This document shows positions 2 through 29,543 of a DNA stretch of 40,445 nucleotides, one piece after another. Both the position numbers and the translations under genes were made by a program. The stretch's first letter is position 1. The number at the start of each line of letters is the position of its first letter. Source of the stretch: a virus (Duplodnaviria > Caudoviricetes); IMG/VR virus record IMGVR_UViG_3300045738_000688, positions 1 through 40,445 of that record. One strand, 5' to 3'. The notes beneath the pieces are model-generated. The model did not search any database. It saw only the letters and a program-made list of their open reading frames with translations, and was not told the origin of the DNA.

Positions 2-3000
2 CAAGAGAACGAGCGAGACGCAGCATTCTACTCGCAGCTCGAACGGACACTCAGCAGCAAGCTACAGGGCAAGGCTGCATCAATCCAGCAGGTGAAGGGA
101 CTGCTCTCACCGAAGCACGGTGTCAAAGCCGAGGAAGTGAAGTGGAGCGGCATCGAGCAGTGGCTGGATGACAACGCCGATGCGAAGGGGAAGGTGAAGA
201 CTGCCGACCTGATGGAGTATGTGCGAAACGCTGGGCAGGTGAAGTTCGAGGAGGTGACTCGTGGTCAGGCGGTGAGCGGTTTCATCTTGTCTGACATCAA
301 TGGGAATCAGATACACGACGAAGTGTTTAAAACCGAGGCCGAAGCGACTACGGCAGCACTGGCCTTTACGGGTCAAAAGGCTTACGTCAGGGACTTAAAT
401 AAGTCGGCAGAGAACGAAACCCAATACAGCAGCTACGTGCTGCCGAACGGCGAGAACTACCGCGAGGTCGTGCTGACCATGCCCGTAGGATTTAGTGTAA
501 GCGCGAAAGACCTTACTGGAGAATCTGCAATAAATTTTGGATACCCAGATAAGTGGATTGTTTACGATAAAAATGGAAAACAAATACGACCACCCAATGC
601 TCGATTCTGGAGTGGCGATACTAAAGAAGAAGCTATAAGGAAAGCGTCTTATGAGATGGAGGCTAGGGAGGCTGAGTCTGGGAAATTCTACACATCCCCT
701 CACTTCTGGAACATCCCGAACTACGTAGCCCACATGCGCCTGAACGAGCGCGAAGACTCCGAAGGCAACGACGGTCTGTTCATCGAGGAGATCCAGTCTG
801 ACCGTCACCAGAAGGCGCGGGACAAGGGCTACAGTGGCGAAGATAAGACGGGTCTGAAGATCGTCGAGCGTGAGGATGGAATGTTCGGCATTCAAGGGGA
901 GGATGGAAAGAATGTGAATATCCGAATCCCTTCAGTTGGAGGATGGGAGCAGACAGTCACTTGGGCTAAAGATCGTTTAATCGTCGAGGCCGACCTTGCA
1001 AGACGGCAGAAAAAAGACTTAGAGCGTGGCATAGCCGACGCACCGTTCCGCAAGGACTGGAACATCCAGATGTTCAAACGCGCATTACGAGACGCAGTCG
1101 CCTCCGGCAAGGACTGGATCGGCTGGACTACGGGGCAGACACAGGCAGACCGCTACGACCTCTCGCAGAAGGTTGACTACATCGACTACGGCAAACGTGG
1201 CGACGACCTCACAGTCAGCGTGCATGCCTTCAACGGCAGTGAGCTATACCGCAACGACAACGCATCCGAGCAGGAGCTGTCCGACACTATCGGCAAAGAC
1301 CTCACGAAGAAGATCATCGAAGGTGCTGAAGCAGGCGTATCGAAGCGACTCACAGGTGCTGACCTGAAGCTCGGCGGCGAAGGCATGAAGGGCTTCTACG
1401 ACAAGATGCTGCCGTCAGCCGTGAACAAATACGTCAAGAAGTTCGGCGCGAAGGTTGAGGTCGGTGGGATTGATCAGCATATCCCCGATCACCTATCTTT
1501 TGACAAATGGCACATGGAAGAATACGGGGAAGAGTTCAACGCTCTGACGAAGGATAGTGAAATGCTCGGGAAGCGTTACGATGAGTATTCCAAAAAATGG
1601 GAGGTTGATCACAAATCGCAACCCATCCACAAGGTCGAGATCACCGATGCAATGCGCGAGTCAGTGCAGCAGGGGCAGGTGTCCTATCAGGTTGTGCAGA
1701 CGGACACCGCAGCCTTCAAGTCGTGGTTCAAGGACTCGAAGGTCGTCGATGCTGATGGGAAGCCACTGATCGTGTATCATGGAGGAGACATGATGGGGTT
1801 CGACGAGTTCGAAACCGAAGGGAAGGGCAAGACCGAAGGGACGGGTGCTTTCTTCACGAACGATTTCACAATGGCAAAGACCTACTCCAGCCACAAGGGG
1901 ACGGTATCCCCGAAGCCATCGCTTGAGCAGGTCATCAAAGATCCTGCCGCTTACGACTTCGAGGTTTCCTACAATGAGGAGTATGAGCAATGGGAGGCTG
2001 AATCACCAGTCGGACATCACGAAGGTGATACCGAAGAGGAAGCTATCGAGATGGCTTTCGATGAATGGACTGGCGAAGCGGAGAGCGGCATCTACGACGT
2101 CTATCTGAGCATGAAAGATCCTATGATCGTGGATGCCGCAGGGCAGAACTGGGACGACATCTCGGAGGGCTGGGATATGCTCAATGAAGACGGAGATGCC
2201 GAAGACACGGTTTACACTGAAGAGGAGGCAGACAAGCTCGTCGCGGACGGGAAGTTTGACTCTCACCGGAGGTCATACGGAAGGTCTACCGACGACATCA
2301 TCCGAGAAGCACACGACATGGGTGACGGCATTGACGGTGTGATTATCCGCAACGTATCCGACTCCGGCGCGAGCGGGTTCGGTGGAGAGAGCGGAGACAT
2401 CTACGTCGTATTCAAGCCCAATCAGATCAAGTCGGCCACCGATAACGTCGGCACGTTCGACCCTGCCGACCCTCGGATCACCTATCAGGTGACTGAGACC
2501 TCAGAGTTTAAGTCGTGGTTTAAGGATTCAAAGGTGCTAGACGAGAACGGCAATCCGCAGATCCTAATGCACGGCACCGCATCGGATTGGGACACGTTCG
2601 AAAAGGGTGCTGCTGTTGGTGGTATGCATCCAACGAAATCCCTTGGGTTCTTCGCCACTCCACTTGAGGAGACTGCAGCTTGGTATGCTGCCAACGCAGA
2701 GAAGCGTGGTTGGGGTGCAGGCAACAAGGCACGAGTCCTCAAGCTGTATGCTGCGATCACTAACCCATACGACATCAGTCGCGAGGACTTCTACGAACTC
2801 CAGATGCCACAGCAGATTTCTGAATTCAAGAAGAAGCTATTGGACGCAGGTCACGACGGTATCAAGGTGATCGACGACGACGGGACTGTGATTGAATACG
2901 TAGCCTTCAAGCCTGAGCAGTTCAAATCAGCAACAGACAACCGTGGCACGTTCGATCCGAACGATGCACGCATCACTTACCAAGTCGAGGCCACAATGGA

Positions 3001-6000
3001 TGACTTCACTAAGGAGAACGTAAGCGACATCGCAAATAAGACAGGCTGGATGATCTTCACTGCCGAGAACCCGAATGCCGTGCAGGTCTCCGATGGAGAG
3101 AACGTCACTCGCAATGAGGAGCTTCGCACTCACCTCGAAGCTCAGGGACTGGAACACCGACAGGTCGTCGGACGCTACGAGGGACTCGAGAATCCATTCC
3201 TCATCGTCGGCACCGATGACAGTCGACGCAATGCAGCCGCACTCGCACGAGAATACGACCAGCAGTCCGTCCTGACGCACGAAGGTCTGGTTTATCAGGA
3301 TGGCTCACTGCACGCTGCTACGGGCAAGACAGAGGTGTTCAAGTCGGCACCGAAGGATTACTACACGACGATGCCAGACGGCACGATGTTCGGCATGGAA
3401 CTCGACTTCAGCACGAAGATCGAGCCCGAGCCACCAATCAAGGAGACTGGCGAATCCGGCGAACTGGTCGACGGTGAGATCGATGGCGACACACTCGCTG
3501 ATCTGATCGACAAGCCATCCTTCCAAATCGAGGAAGACGGCTGGAAGACTCTCACAGCAAAAGACCTTCGCGGCAAGAAGCTGTTCGGTTTCTACGCAGA
3601 CCGCATGAGTGTCGGCACCTACACCGGACTCGACCCAGCGTCAGGGATCAACATTAAGATGCAGGGTGGAATCGACTATCCAATCCACCATAAGGGTGCA
3701 GCTTGGGTAGTCAGCAGTGATTCGATGCACTCCTCTCTGGCTAATGCTGCAGACTCTAGGGATGGCATCGCAGTCGTCATTGCATATGCCAGTGGCAACA
3801 TAACTGGCAACCCGACCTTCGCAGATGCTTATATCGCAGAGCTTAAGTGGGCTATTGAGTCGGGGAAGATTTCAAAGACAGCAGCCTTGAAGATATTGAA
3901 CAAGGTTCGCAAAGAGTCTGTCTCGAACTACAAGACGAAGCAACGAAACGACCAGCGCAAGGCCGACGAAGGTGGTGGAGCACAGGGGTTGATCGACAAG
4001 TTTCGAAAGGCAGCACTATCGAAGAATGGTAAGCTTACTGACAACCAGAATGAAGCCCTACTCGAATACTATGGCAGTGAATCTAAAGTGAATCGTCTCA
4101 TCTCCGAATTGAAGAAAGCCGAGGTCACTAAGTTTGTGAAGGACTTCGCTGCTGACTTCAGTAAGAAGCGATTGGCACCTTGGGCAATCCAGAACAAGAC
4201 GAACTGGAAAACGGTTGAAGAGTTCTTCGACTCGCTCACAGGACGTGGTGCCACATTCGATAGTCGTGGTGCTAAGATGTTTAAGACGGGAAAGAATGTG
4301 GAGGGCAACGTAACGGCTCAGAAGCTCGGAGCTAACCAATATTTAAAAGAAGGGATGCCAGATATTGAGCGCATGATTCACTTGATGGAAGTCGAAGGGT
4401 CACAGGACATTAACACCGGTGACATCCTCGGCCTAGTTCAGATCGACAAGGGTCAAGCTGGGCAAGCGGCATCTGCTTCGGACATCGGTGTGGACGAGCA
4501 CAAATCCTATTCGAAGATCCTGAAAGGCAAACCATACGGAAAACTTCCCAAGACAGTAAACATCCTCGACATCTTCAACCCTCGTGGTGGCTACTTGCCG
4601 CTGGCGGGTGAAGTGCTGAAATTCAAGGACGAAGGTCGTGTCGGTGAGTTGGATGAAGTTGCCTTTCAAATCGGACTCGACCCAGAGGCAGACTACCAAC
4701 GAGACCTCGATGCCATCGCGCAGAAGCTCTCGAAGGAAGAGGCGAAGCGACTCGCACAGATCCGTAAGCTGCACGACGCAGGCGAGGACGTGACCGACAA
4801 GCTCGAGCAACTCGACAACCTCCGCAAGTCAATGCCTACAGCCATCCGTCACCGTCTGGGTGGAGACGTTCAGATCAGTCGCCGGAAGACCGAGAAGGGA
4901 CGTCAGAGCGAGCTGAACCGACGCACGCAGAAGGCAGTCGAACTGGAGCAGTCACACGAGGCAATGAAGCGCAAGTCATGGCTTCGCCGGACGCTGAACC
5001 GATTCGGGGCAAGTCGTGGTGCCAAGCTACAAGGGCAATCGAAGGAGATGACGCAGAAGGTTCGCGACACTCTGAAGGTTGCAGCCTATGCAGCCAACTC
5101 GGATAGCTGGGAGGATGTCGTCAAGCGCAGCACGAAACCACAGTCACTCACTCAGGTCGAGTTCGAGCAGATTGCAGCCGACTTCGCTGGACTCTTGCAG
5201 CCGACCAATAAGAACGCAGCCAAGATCGAGGCTGCATACTATGCCGTCCAAGACCTCATGCGAGAGGGCAAATATACGATGAACAAGATCCGTGCTGATC
5301 GTCTCGCGATGTTCGAGAAGGCAACCGACGAGATCAAGGAAGGTGTCCTCGCCGGAGAGCGTGCGAACAACGACGCAGAGCAGAAGACTGCCGACGCCAA
5401 GAAGGGACTCGACGAGCGACTCACCGCTTGGGTCGACTCTGGCATGACAGGCATGACCGCAGGGTTCGAAAACATCGTCCGACGAATCGACGGTGAGCAA
5501 GGTGGTGCTCTATGGGAGTTCCTCTACGCTGACGAGGTCGACGGTGTGAATGCCTCCGTGGATCGCAAGAACAGCTACATGATGGAGCAGGGCGAGTTCA
5601 TAACCACGGGGCTGGCGAAGGCCTTCCCTGACCTCGTCGACAAGAACGGCGATCCAGACGTCACTGCCATCGTGCGCGAGCTGGCAAAGCTTGATGCTCG
5701 CCCAGCCAAGGCAACCGACACAGGCATTCGATTTGCCGACAATGAAAAGAGTGAGGTTCAAGCGCAGCCAGTCAGTAAGTCGGAAGCGATGTCCATCTGG
5801 CTCGTATTGCGTCAGGAAGGGTCTCGCTCTACCTTCAGGGATCAACACGCCATCACTGACTTCGAAGGCTTCCAGCGTGCTCTGGAGGAATACATCGGTA
5901 TCGATGGCATGGCCGTCATCGACAATGTAATCACACCATTCTACGAGGATGCCTTCTACGACCTGAACGAAGTCTTCAAGCGAGTCGAAGGATACGACAT

Positions 6001-7507
6001 GGACAAGGTGGAAAATTACTTCCGCTTCATGCGCGAGTCCGGCTTCGCAGGTAAGGACATCGAGGATGCCATCAACCCATTCGCCGGATTCACCGAAGAG
6101 AACTCGAACTCCATCGACAAGGGTGCGACGATGACTCGAACAGAGAATGCGACATCACCGTTCAAGTTCATCTCGGCACTGGAAGTCCTGACTCAGTCTG
6201 CAGGGTTCAATGCCAACTACATCGGCATGGCCGGACTCGAGAAGCGACTTCGCTACCTCCATACGAACGACGAATTTAAGCGTGCCGTGCGTCAGAAATA
6301 CGGCACCTCTGGGGTGCAGCAACTCCGCAAGGCTGCAGAGTCCGTGATTGCTGGACGCATCAAAGTCGAAGGATGGGGTGGCAGACTCCTCGAGGGCATC
6401 CGTTCCGTAGGCATAACTTCGGTTCTGGCACTCAAGCCGAAGATTGCACTCACACAGCTCACCTCTGGCATCGCTGGTATCGTCGAGATGCCTGCGCAGG
6501 AGTGGGTGAGTTGGGTCAGTAAGATTGTCGAGAACCCAACCAAGCACTGGAACATCATAAAAGGAACTCCAGCTATGAAGGATCGCATGAGTCGCGGACA
6601 GTCACAGGAGGTGCTCATGGAGCTCAACAAGATCGGGAGGCTCAGCCTTCAGTCTGGAGTGCTGGCTAAGCTGGAGACGGCTACACGCTACAGCATGGCA
6701 CTCATCAAGATGGGCGACATCGTAGGGGCAACCGTATCGGCTGCGCCAGTCTACTTCCACACATACGAAACAGTCCTCGCAGAGACAGGCGACGTCGGCA
6801 CTGCCAAGCGCAAGGCCGAGCAAGCTTTCAGCCGTTCGGTTAATCGCTCGCAGCAGTCACCGCACCTGTATGCACGGCCACAGGCTTATCAGAACAACGC
6901 ATTCATGCGGGTGCTCTATCAGTTCCGTTCAAGCCCGATTCAATACCTTAGTGAGACCCACATGGCTGTTCGTGAGTATGTCGCATCCCAGCGACGTCTC
7001 GACTGGTCACCTGAGAAGCGTGCTCGGGTGGCTAAGCAGTCTCTCAAGGCTATGTTCATTTACCACATTGCGATGCCTCAGTTCTTCTTTGCGGTGAACA
7101 ACGCGATGATCGGCCTATGGCTGGACGACGATGAGCGTCGGATTGGATACTGGCAGGGCATGCTCTGGACTCTCGTCTTCGGCAACTTCGGTGCCTTGCC
7201 TGTTTACGGGGACGCAATCGTGGCAACCTTGGCTGGACTGATGGACGTCGATCATTTCCCAGTCACCGTGGCACCGTCAGGATTGCAGAACGTGCAGCAT
7301 ATTGAGAAGCACGCAAAGCACCTCCTGAAGCCCGAGAGCATGGATGAGTTCCTTGACGGTGCGGCACACCTCCTCGACTTCTCGGGACTGGGAGCCAGCA
7401 CCCTAAAGGACGGAGTTCAGTCGACCTTCGATATGATCGATGAGGGTGACCCAACAGAGATGCTTGAAATCTTAGGGTGGTCAGATCACCTGTTCGGAGA
7501 CGAGTAA
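2..7507 (+). CDS. Giant polyvalent internal virion (ejection) protein, C-terminal part, 5'-truncated; two ART-like domains, DUF3293-like domain, helical C-terminus
   Basis: Frame is open from base 2 (QENERDAAFYSQLERTL...), so the GTG at 92 is probably not the true start. Motifs: YVLPNGENYREVVL...LFIEEIQSDRHQ; two FKSWF..SKV.D..G.P....HG...QIKSATDN.GTFDP modules (~1690-2488, ~2489-2985); WMIFTAENP (~3045). Sits before the tail fibre, like T7 gp16. Confidence 0.85.
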   Translation, partial: QENERDAAFYSQLERTLSSKLQGKAASIQQVKGLLSPKHGVKAEEVKWSGIEQWLDDNADAKGKVKTADLMEYVRNAGQVKFEEVTRGQAVSGFILSDINGNQIHDEVFKTEAEATTAALAFTGQKAYVRDLNKSAENETQYSSYVLPNGENYREVVLTMPVGFSVSAKDLTGESAINFGYPDKWIVYDKNGKQIRPPNARFWSGDTKEEAIRKASYEMEAREAESGKFYTSPHFWNIPNYVAHMRLNEREDSEGNDGLFIEEIQSDRHQKARDKGYSGEDKTGLKIVEREDGMFGIQGEDGKNVNIRIPSVGGWEQTVTWAKDRLIVEADLARRQKKDLERGIADAPFRKDWNIQMFKRALRDAVASGKDWIGWTTGQTQADRYDLSQKVDYIDYGKRGDDLTVSVHAFNGSELYRNDNASEQELSDTIGKDLTKKIIEGAEAGVSKRLTGADLKLGGEGMKGFYDKMLPSAVNKYVKKFGAKVEVGGIDQHIPDHLSFDKWHMEEYGEEFNALTKDSEMLGKRYDEYSKKWEVDHKSQPIHKVEITDAMRESVQQGQVSYQVVQTDTAAFKSWFKDSKVVDADGKPLIVYHGGDMMGFDEFETEGKGKTEGTGAFFTNDFTMAKTYSSHKGTVSPKPSLEQVIKDPAAYDFEVSYNEEYEQWEAESPVGHHEGDTEEEAIEMAFDEWTGEAESGIYDVYLSMKDPMIVDAAGQNWDDISEGWDMLNEDGDAEDTVYTEEEADKLVADGKFDSHRRSYGRSTDDIIREAHDMGDGIDGVIIRNVSDSGASGFGGESGDIYVVFKPNQIKSATDNVGTFDPADPRITYQVTETSEFKSWFKDSKVLDENGNPQILMHGTASDWDTFEKGAAVGGMHPTKSLGFFATPLEETAAWYAANAEKRGWGAGNKARVLKLYAAITNPYDISREDFYELQMPQQISEFKKKLLDAGHDGIKVIDDDGTVIEYVAFKPEQFKSATDNRGTFDPNDARITYQVEATMDDFTKENVSDIANKTGWMIFTAENPNAVQVSDGENVTRNEELRTHLEAQGLEHRQVVGRYEGLENPFLIVGTDDSRRNAAALAREYDQQSVLTHEGLVYQDGSLHAATGKTEVFKSAPKDYYTTMPDGTMFGMELDFSTKIEPEPPIKETGESGELVDGEIDGDTLADLIDKPSFQIEEDGWKTLTAKDLRGKKLFGFYADRMSVGTYTGLDPASGINIKMQGGIDYPIHHKGAAWVVSSDSMHSSLANAADSRDGIAVVIAYASGNITGNPTFADAYIAELKWAIESGKISKTAALKILNKVRKESVSNYKTKQRNDQRKADEGGGAQGLIDKFRKAALSKNGKLTDNQNEALLEYYGSESKVNRLISELKKAEVTKFVKDFAADFSKKRLAPWAIQNKTNWKTVEEFFDSLTGRGATFDSRGAKMFKTGKNVEGNVTAQKLGANQYLKEGMPDIERMIHLMEVEGSQDINTGDILGLVQIDKGQAGQAASASDIGVDEHKSYSKILKGKPYGKLPKTVNILDIFNPRGGYLPLAGEVLKFKDEGRVGELDEVAFQIGLDPEADYQRDLDAIAQKLSKEEAKRLAQIRKLHDAGEDVTDKLEQLDNLRKSMPTAIRHRLGGDVQISRRKTEKGRQSELNRRTQKAVELEQSHEAMKRKSWLRRTLNRFGASRGAKLQGQSKEMTQKVRDTLKVAAYAANSDSWEDVVKRSTKPQSLTQVEFEQIAADFAGLLQPTNKNAAKIEAAYYAVQDLMREGKYTMNKIRADRLAMFEKATDEIKEGVLAGERANNDAEQKTADAKKGLDERLTAWVDSGMTGMTAGFENIVRRIDGEQGGALWEFLYADEVDGVNASVDRKNSYMMEQGEFITTGLAKAFPDLVDKNGDPDVTAIVRELAKLDARPAKATDTGIRFADNEKSEVQAQPVSKSEAMSIWLVLRQEGSRSTFRDQHAITDFEGFQRALEEYIGIDGMAVIDNVITPFYEDAFYDLNEVFKRVEGYDMDKVENYFRFMRESGFAGKDIEDAINPFAGFTEENSNSIDKGATMTRTENATSPFKFISALEVLTQSAGFNANYIGMAGLEKRLRYLHTNDEFKRAVRQKYGTSGVQQLRKAAESVIAGRIKVEGWGGRLLEGIRSVGITSVLALKPKIALTQLTSGIAGIVEMPAQEWVSWVSKIVENPTKHWNIIKGTPAMKDRMSRGQSQEVLMELNKIGRLSLQSGVLAKLETATRYSMALIKMGDIVGATVSAAPVYFHTYETVLAETGDVGTAKRKAEQAFSRSVNRSQQSPHLYARPQAYQNNAFMRVLYQFRSSPIQYLSETHMAVREYVASQRRLDWSPEKRARVAKQSLKAMFIYHIAMPQFFFAVNNAMIGLWLDDDERRIGYWQGMLWTLVFGNFGALPVYGDAIVATLAGLMDVDHFPVTVAPSGLQNVQHIEKHAKHLLKPESMDEFLDGAAHLLDFSGLGASTLKDGVQSTFDMIDEGDPTEMLEILGWSDHLFGDE

Positions 7508-11105: not shown

Positions 11106-11701
11106 TGAAGACAGCACACCTCGTCCACGGATTCAACGTCACCGACGGTGGTGCCAACACAACCGACAAGCTCCGTCCTCACTTCGAGGCACGGGGCTTT
11201 CGTGTGGTTGAGCACGACACCGCATGGGGTCATTCGCTGATCCGCAACCTGCTGAGCGTCCGGTTCGGCAATGCCAAGCGTTCCGAGGCACTGGCACAGA
11301 AGATCAAGTCCGGCGACCTGCTGGTAGGCCACAGCAACGGGTGCCTCCTGATCTCGATGGCTTGCTGGCTGCTGGCACAGCTTGAGGAGACTGCCGGAGT
11401 TCGTGTGGTTCTGTTCAATCCAGCAATGGATGTGGACACACCACTGTCACCCGTGATCTCGAATGCACTGGTGTTCCATACGAAGAGCGACAGGACTGTG
11501 TGGTCAGCAAAGCTCCTGAGAGGACACAGGTGGGGCGAGGCTGGTCGAGTGGGACTAGGAGGCGTATCATCTGCTCGCGTCCATAACTGCAGCTACGAGA
11601 CGCTTGGGTTCGAGGATCTGAAGCACTCGGGAATCTTCGAGAGGCAGGGCAGGATTGAGAAAGCGATGGCAGCTGTCGACGATTGGCTCGAGGAGTCCTG
11701 A
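11105..11701 (+). CDS. Alpha/beta hydrolase (esterase/lipase-like)
   Basis: LVHGFN oxyanion motif, GHSNG nucleophile elbow, candidate Asp (KSDRTV) and His (LKHSG). Confidence 0.8.
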   Translation: MKTAHLVHGFNVTDGGANTTDKLRPHFEARGFRVVEHDTAWGHSLIRNLLSVRFGNAKRSEALAQKIKSGDLLVGHSNGCLLISMACWLLAQLEETAGVRVVLFNPAMDVDTPLSPVISNALVFHTKSDRTVWSAKLLRGHRWGEAGRVGLGGVSSARVHNCSYETLGFEDLKHSGIFERQGRIEKAMAAVDDWLEES

Positions 11702-11707
11702 CACAAT

Positions 11708-11746
11708 GAAGCCCGACTCACACCGTTTAAGTGTTCGTCGGGCTTC
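11708..11746. terminator. Hairpin between convergent transcription units
   Basis: GAAGCCCGAC (11708-17) pairs with GTCGGGCTTC (11737-46). Confidence 0.6.
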
Positions 11747-11829
11747 TACTCTACTCTACTCTTACAAGGCTTACCCAGCGTTCCTGTAAGAATCTGCAGG
11801 CTCGTGTGCTGGGAGGCTCTGGTCAAGCG

Positions 11830-11994
11830 TTAACTCAGTTCGATTCGAACGAGTGTTCCATCCTCCATCTGCAGTATGGCATTGCCCCCACGGATGTATG
11901 TCCGGTTGACGATGGACAGGGCGAAGATGAAGTCGGGATCTTTGGCACGGATCTCCTCGAGCGTCTTTGATTTGGCTACGATGTCGTCGATCAT
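11830..11994 (-). CDS. Hypothetical protein, 54 aa
   Basis: Not in the track. MIDDIVAKSKTLEEIRAKDPDF...; preceded by the genome's CACACATC-ATG leader motif. Confidence 0.6.
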   Translation of the reverse strand: MIDDIVAKSKTLEEIRAKDPDFIFALSIVNRTYIRGGNAILQMEDGTLVRIELS

Positions 11995-12003
11995 GATGTG
12001 TGT

Positions 12004-12246
12004 TTACTTTGCGGTTACGCCATCGCGGAGGACGGCAGGGATTTTGAATTTGACTGGCAATCCGGTCACCTCGTCGGTGCCTTTGATTCTCCATGTGAGG
12101 GTGACCTTGTGATTGGCGCGGTTCCTCCAGAAGTAGACCTTCTCGATACGCATGGATCTTCCAGTGCGTGGGTGTCCGATTAGGTCTCCGGCGCGGTAGT
12201 AAGGGACTTGGCAGTCGGCTGCTGTTGTGCGGTCTGTGCGGCTCAT
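12004..12246 (-). CDS. Hypothetical protein
   Basis: 80 aa; ATGA-type overlap with the upstream gene in the leftward operon. Confidence 0.6.
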   Translation of the reverse strand: MSRTDRTTAADCQVPYYRAGDLIGHPRTGRSMRIEKVYFWRNRANHKVTLTWRIKGTDEVTGLPVKFKIPAVLRDGVTAK

Positions 12247-12461
12247 GCTTCGTCCTCCAATTCTGATAGTGCTACGGTGTCCACGAGGATCTCTCCTGTG
12301 CGACTGAGGAAGCCCATGCTGATGAGGTCTCGAGCAGTCCGTCCGTAGCAGCCCTGAAGCTGCCAGACGGAACCGTCCTTGATGCCTGCAGAGAACATTT
12401 CGAGGACTCCCTGAGAGTCCAGTTCACCTGATTCGAATGATATGATGTCGTTGATATTCAT
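12243..12461 (-). CDS. Conserved small phage early protein
   Basis: IISFESGEL...F...I.DG.VWQLQGCYGRTA..LI..G pattern, recurrent in phage early regions; function unknown. Confidence 0.7.
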   Translation of the reverse strand: MNINDIISFESGELDSQGVLEMFSAGIKDGSVWQLQGCYGRTARDLISMGFLSRTGEILVDTVALSELEDEA

Positions 12462-12466
12462 GATGA

Positions 12467-12661
12467 TTATGCGTTGATGTCTTGGATGTAGTATTGGACG
12501 GTGCCGGATACGAAGTTGCAGATCGCTACGAGATTGCAGCCGTGTGCGTGGTAGAAGGTGGACTCAGCGAGCTCAGTCTTCTTGTAGTCGCGCCATGATC
12601 GCTCGTCGTTTCCGATGAGGAGGAGGGCTGCTTCTTTGGTGATTTCGATTGAATGTTCCAT
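12467..12661 (-). CDS. Hypothetical protein, first gene of the leftward operon
   Basis: 64 aa; preceded by a CACACACATCACATC leader and promoter P1. Confidence 0.65.
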   Translation of the reverse strand: MEHSIEITKEAALLLIGNDERSWRDYKKTELAESTFYHAHGCNLVAICNFVSGTVQYYIQDINA

Positions 12662-12700
12662 GATGATTTTGGTTGATGTGATGTGTGTGATTCGACCAAC

Positions 12701-12748
12701 ATAATGGGCATAGTTTAGTAGGCGTCAAGCCCCGACCTACTAAAGTTT
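12701..12748 (-). promoter_or_regulatory. Leftward promoter/operator P1
   Basis: Minus strand: AAACTTTAGTAGGTC-GGGGC-TTGACG-16 nt-CATTAT; inverted repeat TTTAGTAGG/CCTACTAAA flanks the -35 box. Confidence 0.7.
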
Positions 12749-12759
12749 AATCCTTATTT

Positions 12760-13300
12760 GAAATGACTGCTGTGGTGGCTACGGCACAGTTTCCCCCTAC
12801 CCATAGAGCAGAGAGAAACAGTGACCGTAATAATACATCCTTGAAATAACAGGGGATGACTTTTCGCTACCCTCTCCGATGCTGGCTTCAGTTTCCGATG
12901 AATGGGCATGATAGCAAGAGGGGTCACACGTCCGGTATGTTGGACGATCCGTATTAAGTATCCTCCGTTTTGCATGGAAGGATACACCGTGCAGACTTGG
13001 GCTTAAACGCTCGCTCCGCTGGACTGAGACCGAAAAAGACCTCAGTGCTTGGCGGCAAAACTGAGGTCTTCTAAAGTGCTCTGGGAGCTGTAAAGTGTAT
13101 CCATGCCGCCAAGCTTGGTGTATCTTTCGATGCCCCCACAAATGCAGCTCAAGGGGATCAGGTCAAGCCTATATGCTAAGAAGTCACCATCGGGATCTCC
13201 CAACAGTGACTTCAAACGAAACCTGCCACTCGGATCTCCAAGGGGCAGGCCACACATCATACTTTTTATTATGAATCAGGTATCATCACAAACCTGATGC
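12760..13300 (-). ncRNA. Candidate structured non-coding RNA or replication-origin region
   Basis: No convincing ORF; several hairpins, with G-U pairs favouring the minus strand, plus long-range complementarities (see findings). Confidence 0.45.
13033..13070 (-). terminator. Rho-independent terminator/attenuator with a pairing-competent loop
   Basis: Stem AAGACCTCAG/CTGAGGTCTT with a U-run on the minus strand; loop 13047-13057 is the exact complement of 13104-13114. Confidence 0.65.
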
Positions 13301-13355
13301 TGCTATCAATGCGGTGCCGGATGCGGGTTTCAAGGGTGAAGCGAATTATTTTGAG

Positions 13356-13402
13356 AAACTTTAGTAAGTCTATTGACAACCTACTAAACTTCTGATCTAA
13401 CT
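13356..13402 (+). promoter_or_regulatory. Rightward promoter/operator P2
   Basis: AAACTTTAGTAAGTC-TA-TTGACA-A-CCTACTAAAC; perfect -35 box, unclear -10 box. Confidence 0.6.
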
Positions 13403-13450
13403 CTTCTCATCGGCAGCAATGCCACGTTCTTTCAAATCAATTATGCTTGG

Positions 13451-13640
13451 GGCTACAGGCAACCGAGGTTCGACTCCTCGGGTGTAACTGGCAAATGCTA
13501 TTTACATCTGTATACTGAGCACCAATCTCCCTCCAGACGACTAGGGGTAGTCGCCTTAAACCGGATCAGTAGTCCGGTGTCGTGTGAATCGACGGAGGAC
13601 TCTTTCAAGTTCGGTTCCGCTAGGAGGTGCTCTAGTCGGA
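13451..13640 (+). ncRNA. tRNA-like structured leader (T-arm hairpin plus cloverleaf)
   Basis: CCGAGG-TTCGACT-CCTCGG (13463-81); four-way junction at 13530-13598; not a canonical tRNA. Confidence 0.5.
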
Positions 13641-13707
13641 CAAAGAAGCGACGCACGTTAATCTGCCTTGCCGAACAACATTTCACCACACACATCACAT
13701 CATCATC

Positions 13708-14112
13708 ATGAATCTCAGACCAATACATCTACGCAGCGACCTTGAGCAGCACTTCCGCAACAATGCGGCCTTGGCACTTCTGGAGCACCACCGTCTCTTC
13801 CACAGCGAAGGCTGGAGCGGCAACACGCACCTCGAAGGCATCAAGTGGGGTCTCTACATCGGATACAAGCAAGCAGCCGAACAGCTATCTCTGGGCATCA
13901 CCAGTGCAGTCCCGAAGGGGGACATCGAATACGACGCACTGAACCGTGTCGTCCGTGTCCACGCTAAGAAGCACGGTTACGCACATCTCTCCGGCGACCA
14001 GCCTTACGGCACGCCAGTCCACCTCAAGCAACTGATTGACACAGCTTCAGCAGATCACGAAGCTGGCAATCGTCCAAAGCTCACACCAGACCGTGCAAAT
14101 CCGCACGACTAA
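13708..14112 (+). CDS. Hypothetical protein
   Basis: 134 aa; CACACATCACATCATCATC-ATG leader. Confidence 0.7.
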   Translation: MNLRPIHLRSDLEQHFRNNAALALLEHHRLFHSEGWSGNTHLEGIKWGLYIGYKQAAEQLSLGITSAVPKGDIEYDALNRVVRVHAKKHGYAHLSGDQPYGTPVHLKQLIDTASADHEAGNRPKLTPDRANPHD

Positions 14113-14548: not shown

Positions 14549-14719
14549 ATGCCAGAATCTAATCCAGAAAAGCGCGTCCGTCTCGGGTGCATGATTAAGC
14601 CGGAGAACCTCGCTGCCGTTAAGCGCATCAAGGATGACACCAGAGCACGATCCGAGGGCGTTGTCCTCGACGATGCAATCGAACGCCACGAAAAGGCACT
14701 CACCAGCAAGCGCAAGTAG
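14549..14719 (+). CDS. Putative ribbon-helix-helix DNA-binding protein, 56 aa
   Basis: Not in the track. MPESNPEKRVRLGCMIKPENLAAVKRIKDDTRARSEGVVLDDAIERHEK shows a beta-alpha-alpha pattern and fills the gap before erf. Confidence 0.55.
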   Translation: MPESNPEKRVRLGCMIKPENLAAVKRIKDDTRARSEGVVLDDAIERHEKALTSKRK

Positions 14720-17338: not shown

Positions 17339-17866
17339 ATGAGCATCAGGCTTAAAAAATACACACGGAAACCGTCCTTCATCGAATGCGTCTGGGAAGA
17401 GCGCAACTCACAGGGCGAATACGAGGAGAAATCCTGCAAGTTCAAAGAGGCACCACACCCTATCCTCGCCACAGCAGTCCTCGACCTGAAGAACTCCATC
17501 AAGGTCGTCCTCGAAGTCCCTGTGAAGTGGATGGAGAGCGTCGCGGCAGTCGGTGGGTTCAGCGTCCACCGCACTGAGGCCGGAGTCCGGTCACTCGAAG
17601 TGAAGTTCACGAAGGGATTCAAGATCGGCAACACGAAGGAATACACGACACCGCAGTTCCGCATCGACCCAGCGGACGAAGCCGAGGACAACCAGAGCGT
17701 GCTGTGGATCGACGATGCCCTGCTCTGCGTCACTGCAATCGATGCCGTGGAAGCCTACATCCAAGGCGACCGACAGCAGATGACCCTCGACGGTATCGAG
17801 AAAACGGTAGTCGGTGCCAACGAAGCCGAGGGCAAAGAACTCGACCTCGAAGCAGAGGAAGAGTAG
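17339..17866 (+). CDS. Hypothetical protein
   Basis: 175 aa; genome-typical codon usage; acidic C-terminus. Confidence 0.75.
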   Translation: MSIRLKKYTRKPSFIECVWEERNSQGEYEEKSCKFKEAPHPILATAVLDLKNSIKVVLEVPVKWMESVAAVGGFSVHRTEAGVRSLEVKFTKGFKIGNTKEYTTPQFRIDPADEAEDNQSVLWIDDALLCVTAIDAVEAYIQGDRQQMTLDGIEKTVVGANEAEGKELDLEAEEE

Positions 17867-17929: not shown

Positions 17930-17977
17930 AAACTTTAGTAGGTCTGAGCTTGACCTGCACCTGCAAGTCCCTACCGT
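17930..17977 (+). promoter_or_regulatory. Promoter/operator P3 (left arm only)
   Basis: AAACTTTAGTAGGTC-TGAGC-TTGACC-16 nt-TACCGT, immediately after the terminator. Confidence 0.6.
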
Positions 17978-18004: not shown

Positions 18005-18886
18005 ATGAAACCAAGACTAGCAATATCATTTTCAGGGGGCAGGACTTCAGCCGTAATGACGAAACTTTGCGTCGATCAGTTTGCGAGCACTCACGACATC
18101 TCTGTAACCTTCGCAAACACTGGAGCAGAGCACGAGAATACGCTTAAATTCGTAGACCAGTGTGATAGACATTTCGGTTGGAACGTCGCATGGATTGAGG
18201 CCGTAGTGAATCCAGATAAGGGAAAAGGCATTCGCCACAGGGTTGTAACCTTCGAGAACGCATCCCGAAATGGGGAGCCATTCGAGGCATACATTGAGAA
18301 ATATGGGATGCCCGACATGAACCATAATCATTGCACCTCCCGACTGAAAGAGGATGTGATGTATGCCTATCGACGCGACGTTCTGGGATGGGGCAGATCA
18401 ACCTACTGGACTGCCATAGGCATTCGTTCCGATGAAGTTGATCGCGTATCATCGAAGCGTATCGAAAATAAGCTACTCTACCCACTCGTTGAAGCTGGCT
18501 GGACTAAAGAGGACGTGAAGGAAGAATGCAAAAAATGGCCTTTCGATCTCGACCTGAAAGGTGAGCACTACGGCAACTGTGTATGGTGCTGGAAGAAGAG
18601 CTTCCGCAAGTTGCTGACCTTAGCTAAAGAGGATGAGAGTGTCTTCGACTTCCCTATCAGGATGGAGGCCAAGCACGCATGGACGAATAATACAGGAGAC
18701 AGTGATCGCGTAATGTTCCGATCCCGACGCAAGGCGATTGACATCATCGAGCTGGCAAGGACGCTAGATTTCGAGCCTTACAGTGACATTGACCAAGCTC
18801 AAATGTTCAGCAGCGCATCCTACGACCTTTTCCTAGACACCGGATCTGCCTGCGGGGAATCCTGCGAGATCGGTGCCGACGACTAA
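18005..18886 (+). CDS. PAPS reductase-like (PP-loop adenine nucleotide alpha hydrolase) protein
   Basis: SFSGGRTS PP-loop, FANTG.E, CTSRLK, IGIRSDE, YPL, GNCVWCWKKS and C-terminal CGESCE. Confidence 0.85.
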   Translation: MKPRLAISFSGGRTSAVMTKLCVDQFASTHDISVTFANTGAEHENTLKFVDQCDRHFGWNVAWIEAVVNPDKGKGIRHRVVTFENASRNGEPFEAYIEKYGMPDMNHNHCTSRLKEDVMYAYRRDVLGWGRSTYWTAIGIRSDEVDRVSSKRIENKLLYPLVEAGWTKEDVKEECKKWPFDLDLKGEHYGNCVWCWKKSFRKLLTLAKEDESVFDFPIRMEAKHAWTNNTGDSDRVMFRSRRKAIDIIELARTLDFEPYSDIDQAQMFSSASYDLFLDTGSACGESCEIGADD

Positions 18887-21314: not shown

Positions 21315-21596
21315 ATGAGTTCAGTAAGACAACGCAGGAAGAAATTACGAGTAGACGGCATCTGGCATGATGCGCAGGACAACAAGGTCGAGATCATCAA
21401 GATTAAATACGGCAAGGTCACGTTTCGGATTCTAGAGCTGACCGAGCACATCCCAACGAAGCAGCCGGACGGCAGGGTGCAGCTAATGCCGATGGAGGAT
21501 CGCACGGACACGCTGCCTGTCGAGACGTTCATTGCATCGCCCACAGGTTTTGACTGCATGTCAGAGACTGGCAGGGTGAGGAACAAACTTTGGTAG
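21315..21596 (+). CDS. Hypothetical protein
   Basis: 93 aa, directly after the resolvase. Confidence 0.65.
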   Translation: MSSVRQRRKKLRVDGIWHDAQDNKVEIIKIKYGKVTFRILELTEHIPTKQPDGRVQLMPMEDRTDTLPVETFIASPTGFDCMSETGRVRNKLW

Positions 21597-21632
21597 GTCG
21601 GAGCTTGACACCTACTAAGGTTTGAGCATTGT
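21585..21632 (+). promoter_or_regulatory. Promoter/operator P4
   Basis: AAACTTTGGTAGGTC-GGAGC-TTGACA-CCTACTAAG...(16 nt)-CATTGT. Confidence 0.7.
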
Positions 21633-29063: not shown

Positions 29064-29543
29064 ATGACTACTGCAATTAAGAAACCAACCCTCGCGGACG
29101 TAGCAGAGCTGTCAGGCTCCCACCGCAACACCGTCAGTAAGATCCTGAAGGGTGAATACGAAGGTGATGTTGAGACCATCAGTAAGGTTCTATCCGCTGC
29201 CTCTATCCTAAACTACACGATCCCTGCAACCCGCAAGGCACCAGTCAAGGCACCCATCAACGGTGCTCCAGTGGATGACGACAACCTGCCGGAAGGTGCT
29301 TCGCTGGAAGTCCCCGAGGAGAAGTGCTCCGCTCACCACAACCTGACATTGCGTTACGCTATCAAGGTCGCGTGTGAGTGGGAATACGACAAGGACAAGG
29401 ACGGCAACAGGATCGACGACACCGAGAAGGCAATCGGGTTCGAAGAGCGGACGTTCCATCACTGTCTCTCGGAGCGACCAACCCTGAAGGAAGTGCAGCG
29501 CATCATTGCAGCGAAGCATGCTAGGTTGCCTGACGCCGTTTAA
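29064..29543 (+). CDS. LacI-type HTH DNA-binding protein
   Basis: KPTLADVAELSGSHRNTVSKILKG...V..AA..LNY; no sugar-binding domain. ATG at 29064 preferred. Confidence 0.8.
   Translation: MTTAIKKPTLADVAELSGSHRNTVSKILKGEYEGDVETISKVLSAASILNYTIPATRKAPVKAPINGAPVDDDNLPEGASLEVPEEKCSAHHNLTLRYAIKVACEWEYDKDKDGNRIDDTEKAIGFEERTFHHCLSERPTLKEVQRIIAAKHARLPDAV

Follow-up and report, generated by a model that had tools for sequence, protein, structure and literature searches.

Several described systems, from plasmids as well as phages, provide a measure for the locus considered here. ColE1 RNA II/RNA I (PMC5043065; NC_001371) shares with this locus a long structured non-coding transcript, predicted here, and, possibly, feedback at the RNA level; no encoded initiator was found here either, about 20 small ORFs being unassigned. 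In the P4 CI/seqA-seqC, Gifsy-1 IsrK and P1/P7 c4 RNA systems (PMC4825925, PMC2864571), a prematurely terminated phage RNA is complementary to an upstream segment of its own transcript and the pairing decides termination, an arrangement which the locus resembles. The attenuation systems of pT181 and pIP501 (Inc18) are alike in that RNA pairing sets the choice between terminator and antiterminator (PMC5703833, PMC5415839), and by analogy with them the sequence variants of the locus would confer an incompatibility-like specificity. Finally, the ssoA origins (PMC6395029, PMC8860593) have in common with it the TAGCGA hexamer, partial RSB-like letters and a long imperfect hairpin.

When compared with its relatives, the locus appears from its sequence to be a real, uncatalogued RNA of minus-strand sense, organised as a cassette of three modules: a candidate short 5' RNA, a predicted switch and a conserved core. 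The reading preferred here, to which a probability of roughly 0.35 is given, is that of an attenuator-gated cassette whose read-through RNA would prime the replication of phage DNA.

The gap, its boundaries and its relatives

The window, that is, the whole stretch of DNA analysed, is an entire virus record of 40,445 bases (97% complete according to CheckV) that was detected in seawater DNA runs. Its virion genes are of podophage type, and a profile search places ERF, SSB, a DnaC-like ATPase, NinB and RuvC in the early region; a giant virion protein (92-7507) carries polyvalent-protein ADP-ribosyltransferase domains (PF18760). No integrase, partition gene or other sign of a plasmid state was found among the 47 window ORFs scanned against PHROGs and Pfam. 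The gene-free gap sits between two back-to-back early promoters, each with a TTGAC box and the same inverted repeat, which form the boundaries of the cassette: a leftward one on the minus strand (TTGACG-16-CATTAT, 12701-12747), flanked by an operator-like inverted repeat at 12712-12747, and a rightward one on the plus strand (TTGACA, 13356-13400), with its repeat at 13356-13391. This operator-like element recurs around TTGAC boxes at 17941 and 21590-21620, giving four copies in the window, and there are three in the relative G001 introduced below. Candidate binders are a conserved 56-aa protein encoded at 14549, which may be a ribbon-helix-helix repressor and whose predicted fold is uninformative (pLDDT 64), and an HTH protein at 29064, whose gene is oddly placed between the scaffold and capsid genes. 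On either side of the gap, the leader of the rightward operon (13430-13700, plus strand) is long and structured (z -2.2), with a tRNA T-arm-like hairpin at 13463-13481, and is not conserved in G001, while the leftward operon (11637-12660) varies as a cassette: other sequence takes its place in a close strain (joint 11637-12457) and in the contig L262, and G001 has a pentapeptide-repeat gene there.

From a structural point of view, the gap is unusual on both strands: for 12750-13340 the fold z is -4.88 as minus strand and -3.18 as plus strand, and in neither orientation did any of 100 dinucleotide shuffles fold as well; the signal is spread over about 12700-13300 when followed in 150-nt windows. 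An earlier note on this DNA had proposed here a structured minus-strand non-coding RNA with an attenuator, and this proposal is supported, the minus strand folding better and the helices being kept through compensating and G-U changes. The elements that it listed are likewise in place, namely a weak promoter candidate, TTGAAA-16-CATTGA (13333-13306), and hairpins at 13298-13275, 13249-13222, 13213-13180, 13071-13035, 12985-12958 and 12858-12836. The non-coding status was borne out too, as a conserved protein was sought in the gap and none was found. The Rfam search returned no family match: there were no window matches at the gathering threshold, four chance matches (E 1.6-7.8) over 12400-13900 and, in the variant L266, two sub-threshold matches of terminator type only. 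A scan for tRNA and tmRNA found none. No description of the cassette was found in the literature, and an entry for it among the anonymous candidate RNAs of PMC10690425, whose supplements were covered in part, is possible.

Relatives of the cassette were gathered by protein and by pattern. A search with the capsid protein yielded 12 related records, and of the five of these that were searched two, G001 and G002, carry the spacer; G001, with 38,527 bases and terminal repeats, is a complete circular relative. When metagenomes were scanned with a 19-nt pattern, 11 loci came up, and inspection showed 7 to be true homologues. The cassettes fall into four sequence types: that of the window (with L262), that of G001 (with G002, L259, L263 and L265), that of L266 (with L256) and that of L260. 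The last is a contig of 1,337 bases from another phage, where the neighbour of the cassette, placed back to back with it, is a major-head-like gene from a different PHROG family. Pattern scans of viral loci gave 0 of 14, 2 of 2, 2 of 31 and 2 of 74 true homologues by inspection, and loci from genome collections 0 of 16; none of 80 loci from ERF relatives has the cassette, cultured phages gave a single chance match (E 0.3), and eight DNA sequencing runs yielded near-identical strains only. The RNA model R1, built on the core, gave one weak match (9 bits, E 0.096) on 50 of the 92 ERF- and capsid-linked records and no second copy of the cassette in the window or G001. Since the genes downstream of the cassette differ between phages, those of the window and G001 not being shared, and since the context in L260 is yet another gene, the cassette itself seems to carry the function.

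The proposed terminator-loop switch and the candidate short 5' RNA

The switch occupies 13166-13031 on the minus strand, and its centre is T2 (13031-13071), an intrinsic-terminator-like hairpin (13071-13035) followed by a U run, with a stem of 11-13 bp in all four variants and a loop that holds a code segment, a. T2 lies 77-120 nt before the TTAATA of the core in all four types and is directly preceded by a small hairpin, H1 (13078-13088), present in every variant with a different sequence each time. The complement of its loop, a' (13104-13114), is the predicted antiterminator; it is located 32-53 nt upstream, and its letters differ in each of the four variants. A terminator scan, which accepts loops of 3-8 nt only, listed neither T2 nor T1, the hairpin that ends the short 5' RNA. 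The complement between loop and a' measures 11, 7, 7 and 10 bp in the four variants and was matched by 0, 19, 16 and 0 of 2000 shuffles, respectively; in a cross matrix of a' segments against loops, the cognate pair is the strongest in every row. One close strain has a non-compensated change at 13111, in the outer part of a', with the inner 7 bp intact. The 10-11-nt complementary pair of the window also occurs, in two or three copies and with terminator-like U runs, in the unrelated viral contigs L084, L086 and L092 (around 3001); the c4/CI-like look of these contigs is unsupported, there being no Rfam match.

The paired segment of the loop ends 0 nt from the 3' arm of T2 in all four variants, and because it abuts that arm, a'/loop pairing and T2 are mutually exclusive; in such a pseudoknot geometry the a'/loop helix and the full terminator hairpin cannot coexist. 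Folds of truncated transcripts predict that a and a' are paired (P 0.97-1.00, in each variant) before the 3' arm of T2 exists, whereas in full-length folds the terminator wins in two of the four types and the antiterminator in the other two. The GATACAC(C) copies pointed out by the earlier note are present (13124-13117 and 13101-13095 against 12988-12981), but the alternative pairings that it built on them are private to the window type, the other three variants reaching 4 nt at best, with 937-946 of 1000 shuffles as good.

A second line of evidence comes from the comparison of G001 with L266, which are identical over 319 of 322 nt on the upstream side of the switch module and over 450 of 452 nt on its downstream side, while within the module itself (a', terminator and linker; 194-199 nt) identity is 68%, against 58% for shuffles. 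Alignment shows the switch module to have been swapped wholesale between these two otherwise 99% identical phage records, and such a difference amid 99% identical flanks is as expected of a specificity determinant. The loop/a' code may be read as one that selection diversifies, in the manner of immunity or incompatibility groups.

The predicted a'/loop pairing probably acts as an antitermination switch that gates transcription into the core. As soon as the loop exits the polymerase, and before the 3' arm of the terminator is made, a' would pair with it and allow read-through; terminated RNAs, with their loop exposed, would bind the a' segment of new transcripts with the same code and force their termination. 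The result would be a self-specific negative feedback exerted by the terminated RNA, amounting to copy control or superinfection exclusion. That this feedback may act in trans is suggested by analogy with P4 CI and IsrK (PMC4825925) and with pT181 and pIP501 (PMC5703833, PMC5415839). If the switch works, it would be a compact, naturally orthogonal RNA attenuator, with its specificity in 7-11 loop bases and with four natural codes.

Each of the two candidates for the leftward promoter of the cassette has a poor -10 box, and neither is seen in L260. The first, weak and predicted (TTGAAA-16-CAT, 13306-13333), has the same box and spacing in G001; the second is internal to the switch (13139-13166), with a TTGACC -35 box kept in the window, G001 and L266. 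The first would give rise to a predicted short 5' RNA of about 13299-13214, whose promoter box and hairpin-plus-U end are kept in G001. This RNA begins with a hairpin (13275-13298) that G001 keeps with other letters, and ends with T1, a hairpin with a U-rich tail (13214-13249) that has a run of 6-9 U in G001 and L266; the second of these twin hairpins (13180-13213) is found in the window type only.

Shortly ahead of its U-rich end, the short RNA has a segment, 13249-13280, that is complementary to the CACATCAT...ATG leader that precedes many early genes and no structural genes. A leader of the form ACACATCAT...ATG, shared by early genes, occurs on the plus strand at 13252, 13690, 14733, 15912, 16247, 17995, 18895, 20784 and 21938 and on the minus strand at 12686 and 12001; structural genes such as that of the capsid have an AGGAG box instead, and the early leader of G001 is its own version. 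When the segment was paired with gene starts, the best eight of 45 in the window were all early-region genes (best -19.7), and the best among 40 in G001 reached -29.7, -24.6 and -24.1, the best partner in each genome being the first gene of an early operon. The window segment pairs with the ten early leaders of the window at -17.0 and with those of G001 at -12.3, while the G001 segment pairs with both sets, at -21.1 and -19.6. On the plus strand this segment can also be read as a leader with an ORF of 8 codons (16 in G001), and part of the segment is predicted inside a weak hairpin, so the anti-leader role is a lead only; the odds that the short 5' RNA acts on early-gene leaders are about even.

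The conserved core and its candidate roles

Behind the switch lies the folded core of 220 nt (12992-12770, minus strand), with helices P1-P5 and no Rfam match, whose identity between the window and G001, from TTAATA to its end, is 85%, compared with 78% for the capsid, 71% for ERF and 69% for the DnaC-like protein. P1 (12958-12985) carries a conserved TGCAA loop motif, with 3 of its 6 pairs changed on both sides and 100% of cells paired. It is followed, over 12929-12957, by a conserved junction, TTAATAYGGAT, and the hairpin P2, which covaries in the four-type alignment, and then by P3 (12870-12922), a covarying stem (2 of 7 pairs double-changed, 100% of cells paired) that encloses 28 nt without any difference between the four variants. 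The short stem P4 (12836-12858), with a 13-nt loop, is identical in the window, G001 and L266 and absent in L260. Over the core as a whole, 9 of 30 pairs are changed on both sides and 95% of the 120 cells of the four-row alignment are paired, a score that 0 of 500 shuffles attain and that slid controls miss at 36-43%; these figures are not probabilities, the four rows being related and the structure being drawn from the same sequences, and the covariation rests on about three lineages, because there are only four types and two of them share most of the core. Folded alone, the core has z values of -2.80, -1.29 (G001, weak), -2.01 and +1.05 (L260, no better than shuffles) in the four types. Gathering homologous spacers and examining covariation, as the earlier note had advised, found both the core helices and the switch pairing kept.

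The last helix, P5 (12780-12829), is a 22-bp imperfect hairpin of -30.6 kcal/mol as minus-strand RNA and of about half that stability on the plus strand. Its 3' arm is the same in the window, G001 and L266, and the differing 5' arm keeps 22 pairs, with 4 G-U in each; with DNA parameters the hairpin is far weaker (-13.1, -11.1 and -2.2 kcal/mol). The pattern of the arms, together with the difference in stability between strands and between RNA and DNA, points to a nucleic acid that is single-stranded and has minus-strand sense, for which RNA is the simplest candidate. It might instead be supposed that the core works as folded single-stranded DNA, a priming signal of sso/ssi type exposed by transcription, since TAGCGA, the CS-6 hexamer, occurs in it together with a TRTGCCG stretch resembling a portion of the RSB (PMC6395029), and DNA hairpins tolerate G-T pairs. 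Yet the weakness of P5 as DNA speaks against this, the motif order is reversed relative to ssoA, where the RSB comes before CS-6, the hexamer sits in a junction and not in a loop (PMC6395029), and motifs so short arise by chance, which makes this reading improbable.

Coding was considered as well, and the core has no long reading frame common to the variants. An ATG-led frame of 37-56 codons is nevertheless open in all four, starting with MPIHRKLKPAS, and its 11 identical residues come with one silent change, so a short leader peptide whose translation controls the structure can be envisaged. Nine consecutive codons without a silent change, in a region whose neighbouring stems have diverged, argue otherwise, as do C-terminal frames and lengths that vary (51, 56, 56 and 37 aa), the lack of a homologue for the longer frame and an ATG located inside a predicted helix; this reading is very improbable.

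No U-run terminator is found behind the core, and this bears on how its transcript would be used. One reading makes the whole cassette a long 5' leader, whose switch and core would regulate read-through towards the leftward genes as a put-like or translational element; besides the missing terminator, it is favoured by a broken ORF that begins about 25 nt behind the core in G001 and L266. In the window, by contrast, the next feature is a separate operator-promoter and no gene, and the genes downstream are not common to G001 even though the core is 85% identical, so that this reading is regarded as unlikely. In G001 and L266 the broken ORF (L110:1749-1980) separates the core from the leftward promoter. 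In G001 it may be of GIY-YIG/T5orf172 nuclease type, an assignment that neither Pfam nor PHROGs supports.

Another reading keeps the same switch and makes the core a regulatory RNA that would act in trans once processing at the long hairpin has freed it, within an all-RNA lysis/immunity region that takes the usual place of the repressor gene between divergent early promoters. The position of the cassette between PL and PR fits this, as do the preference of the short 5' RNA for the first genes of both early operons and the precedents of P4 CI and IsrK, terminated short RNAs that act on their own read-through transcript (PMC4825925). Set against it are a core without a terminator and without a complement of more than 11 nt elsewhere in the window, a cassette in L260 that is not between early promoters, and anti-leader letters that are equally readable as a sense leader with a mini-ORF; on balance it is considered unlikely.

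Replication priming by the read-through RNA is preferred to these readings because the core has no terminator, its downstream neighbours are not conserved, two genomes encode a helicase loader for which the usual partner was not found, and copy control relies on RNA feedback of this self-specific kind. The DnaC-like gene of the window belongs to PHROG 50 (E 2.5e-12), and Walker A and B-like motifs are retained across 14 aligned members of its family. The earlier note had seen a DnaC-like loader without a recognisable initiator, primase or polymerase, and the analysis agrees, for the window as for G001: in the former, no initiator, primase or polymerase match was obtained (47 ORFs against PHROGs and Pfam, 26 against NCBIfam), about 20 small ORFs being unassigned and one of these having a good fold model, and in the latter, which has the same gene set here, no initiator was found and the DnaC-like gene has no additional large ORF next to it. 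Longer fused forms of the DnaC-like protein were sought in a weak test and none was found. The protein encoded directly upstream of the DnaC-like gene in G001 has a window homologue at 17339-17866, a conserved 175-aa early protein with 65 relatives at E 0.001; its model is confident, with a beta-rich domain (pLDDT 90.6), and has no Foldseek match in the PDB at E 0.001. Family look-ups for ORFs 20144 and 20488 gave nothing above the level of a lead. In the window, a PAPS-reductase-family gene (18005-18886), absent from G001, is inserted before the DnaC-like gene, with the operator copy of 17941.

Given the switch, a priming role of the core falls a little short of even odds. The most weakly inferred steps are that the read-through RNA would trade the wobble-rich G-tract hairpin for a perfectly matching template strand and form an R-loop, and that the DnaC-like protein would load the host helicase there. 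The G-tract pointed out by the earlier note is indeed at 12802-12791, but it is not single-stranded in the predicted fold: it is paired (P 0.89-1.00) within P5, the 22-bp hairpin at 12829-12780 that had not been listed, and this pairing counts against priming. Nor does the sequence give a direct sign of an origin: the window has no match to a DnaA box and no stretch above 77% A+T, and strand skew is uninformative, as the skew at four-fold sites follows the coding strand without a switch. If the gated RNA does prime, a tailed phage would possess an origin that needs no initiator, is metered by RNA and arose apart from ColE1, and the presence of a helicase-loader gene without an initiator would be explained. 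A wider version, quite unlikely, is that this phage lineage has replaced both initiator and repressor gene by RNA, with a portable, self-specific origin unrelated to ColE1, whose primer would be metered by a swappable code, beside a small RNA that silences early genes through their common leader.

Comparison with described systems

The earlier note had compared the whole stretch with ColE1, as a single 550-nt primer like RNA II, and this did not survive the analysis. Two predicted terminator-like hairpins with U tails interrupt the 550-nt stretch, and the G-tract is paired. The G6 runs of ColE1 have a role in origin function. In NC_001371 there are two of them about 250 nt apart (928, 1175), ahead of an A5 site, whereas the cassette lacks such a pair, a single G4-5 run being common to all variants, with no A5 after it. 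No sequence likeness to ColE1 was found: over the four variants and both strands, between 5 and 63 of 100 shuffles reached the same score, and among 72,556 plasmids only chance matches of 25-33 nt at E 9 were obtained. For RNA I there was neither an Rfam match nor a plus-strand promoter of the phage's own type facing the cassette. The overall length is similar and no initiator was found, which is what a true ColE1-type replicon with RNA II and RNA I has in its favour, but every sequence feature tested (likeness, RNA I, G6 runs, uninterrupted transcript) fails, and its probability is negligible.

The phage systems are closer. The upstream complementary segment that corresponds to seqA or a1b1 is present in all four cassette variants, while a counterpart of seqC or a2b2 is absent, a' having a single partner among the inverted repeats of 12600-13800 in the window type; the c4 covariance models gave no Rfam match in the window, L260 or L266. 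In contrast to P4 CI and c4, the code of the cassette sits in the terminator loop itself, and what it would gate is a non-coding core, instead of kil, icd, ant or replication genes. With pT181 and pIP501 the cassette shares an intrinsic terminator and an alternative antiterminator pairing, predicted in all four variants; those systems belong to plasmids and this one to a phage, in which no plus-strand counter-transcript promoter was found and no rep gene follows. The ssoA origins differ from the cassette in the order of their elements, which is reversed here, in the CS-6-like hexamer, which here lies in a junction, and in the rolling-circle Rep, for which the cassette has no equivalent. By analogy with these systems, the cassette is best regarded as an antisense-attenuation control of known logic, new in form, which would gate a non-coding core of candidate function.
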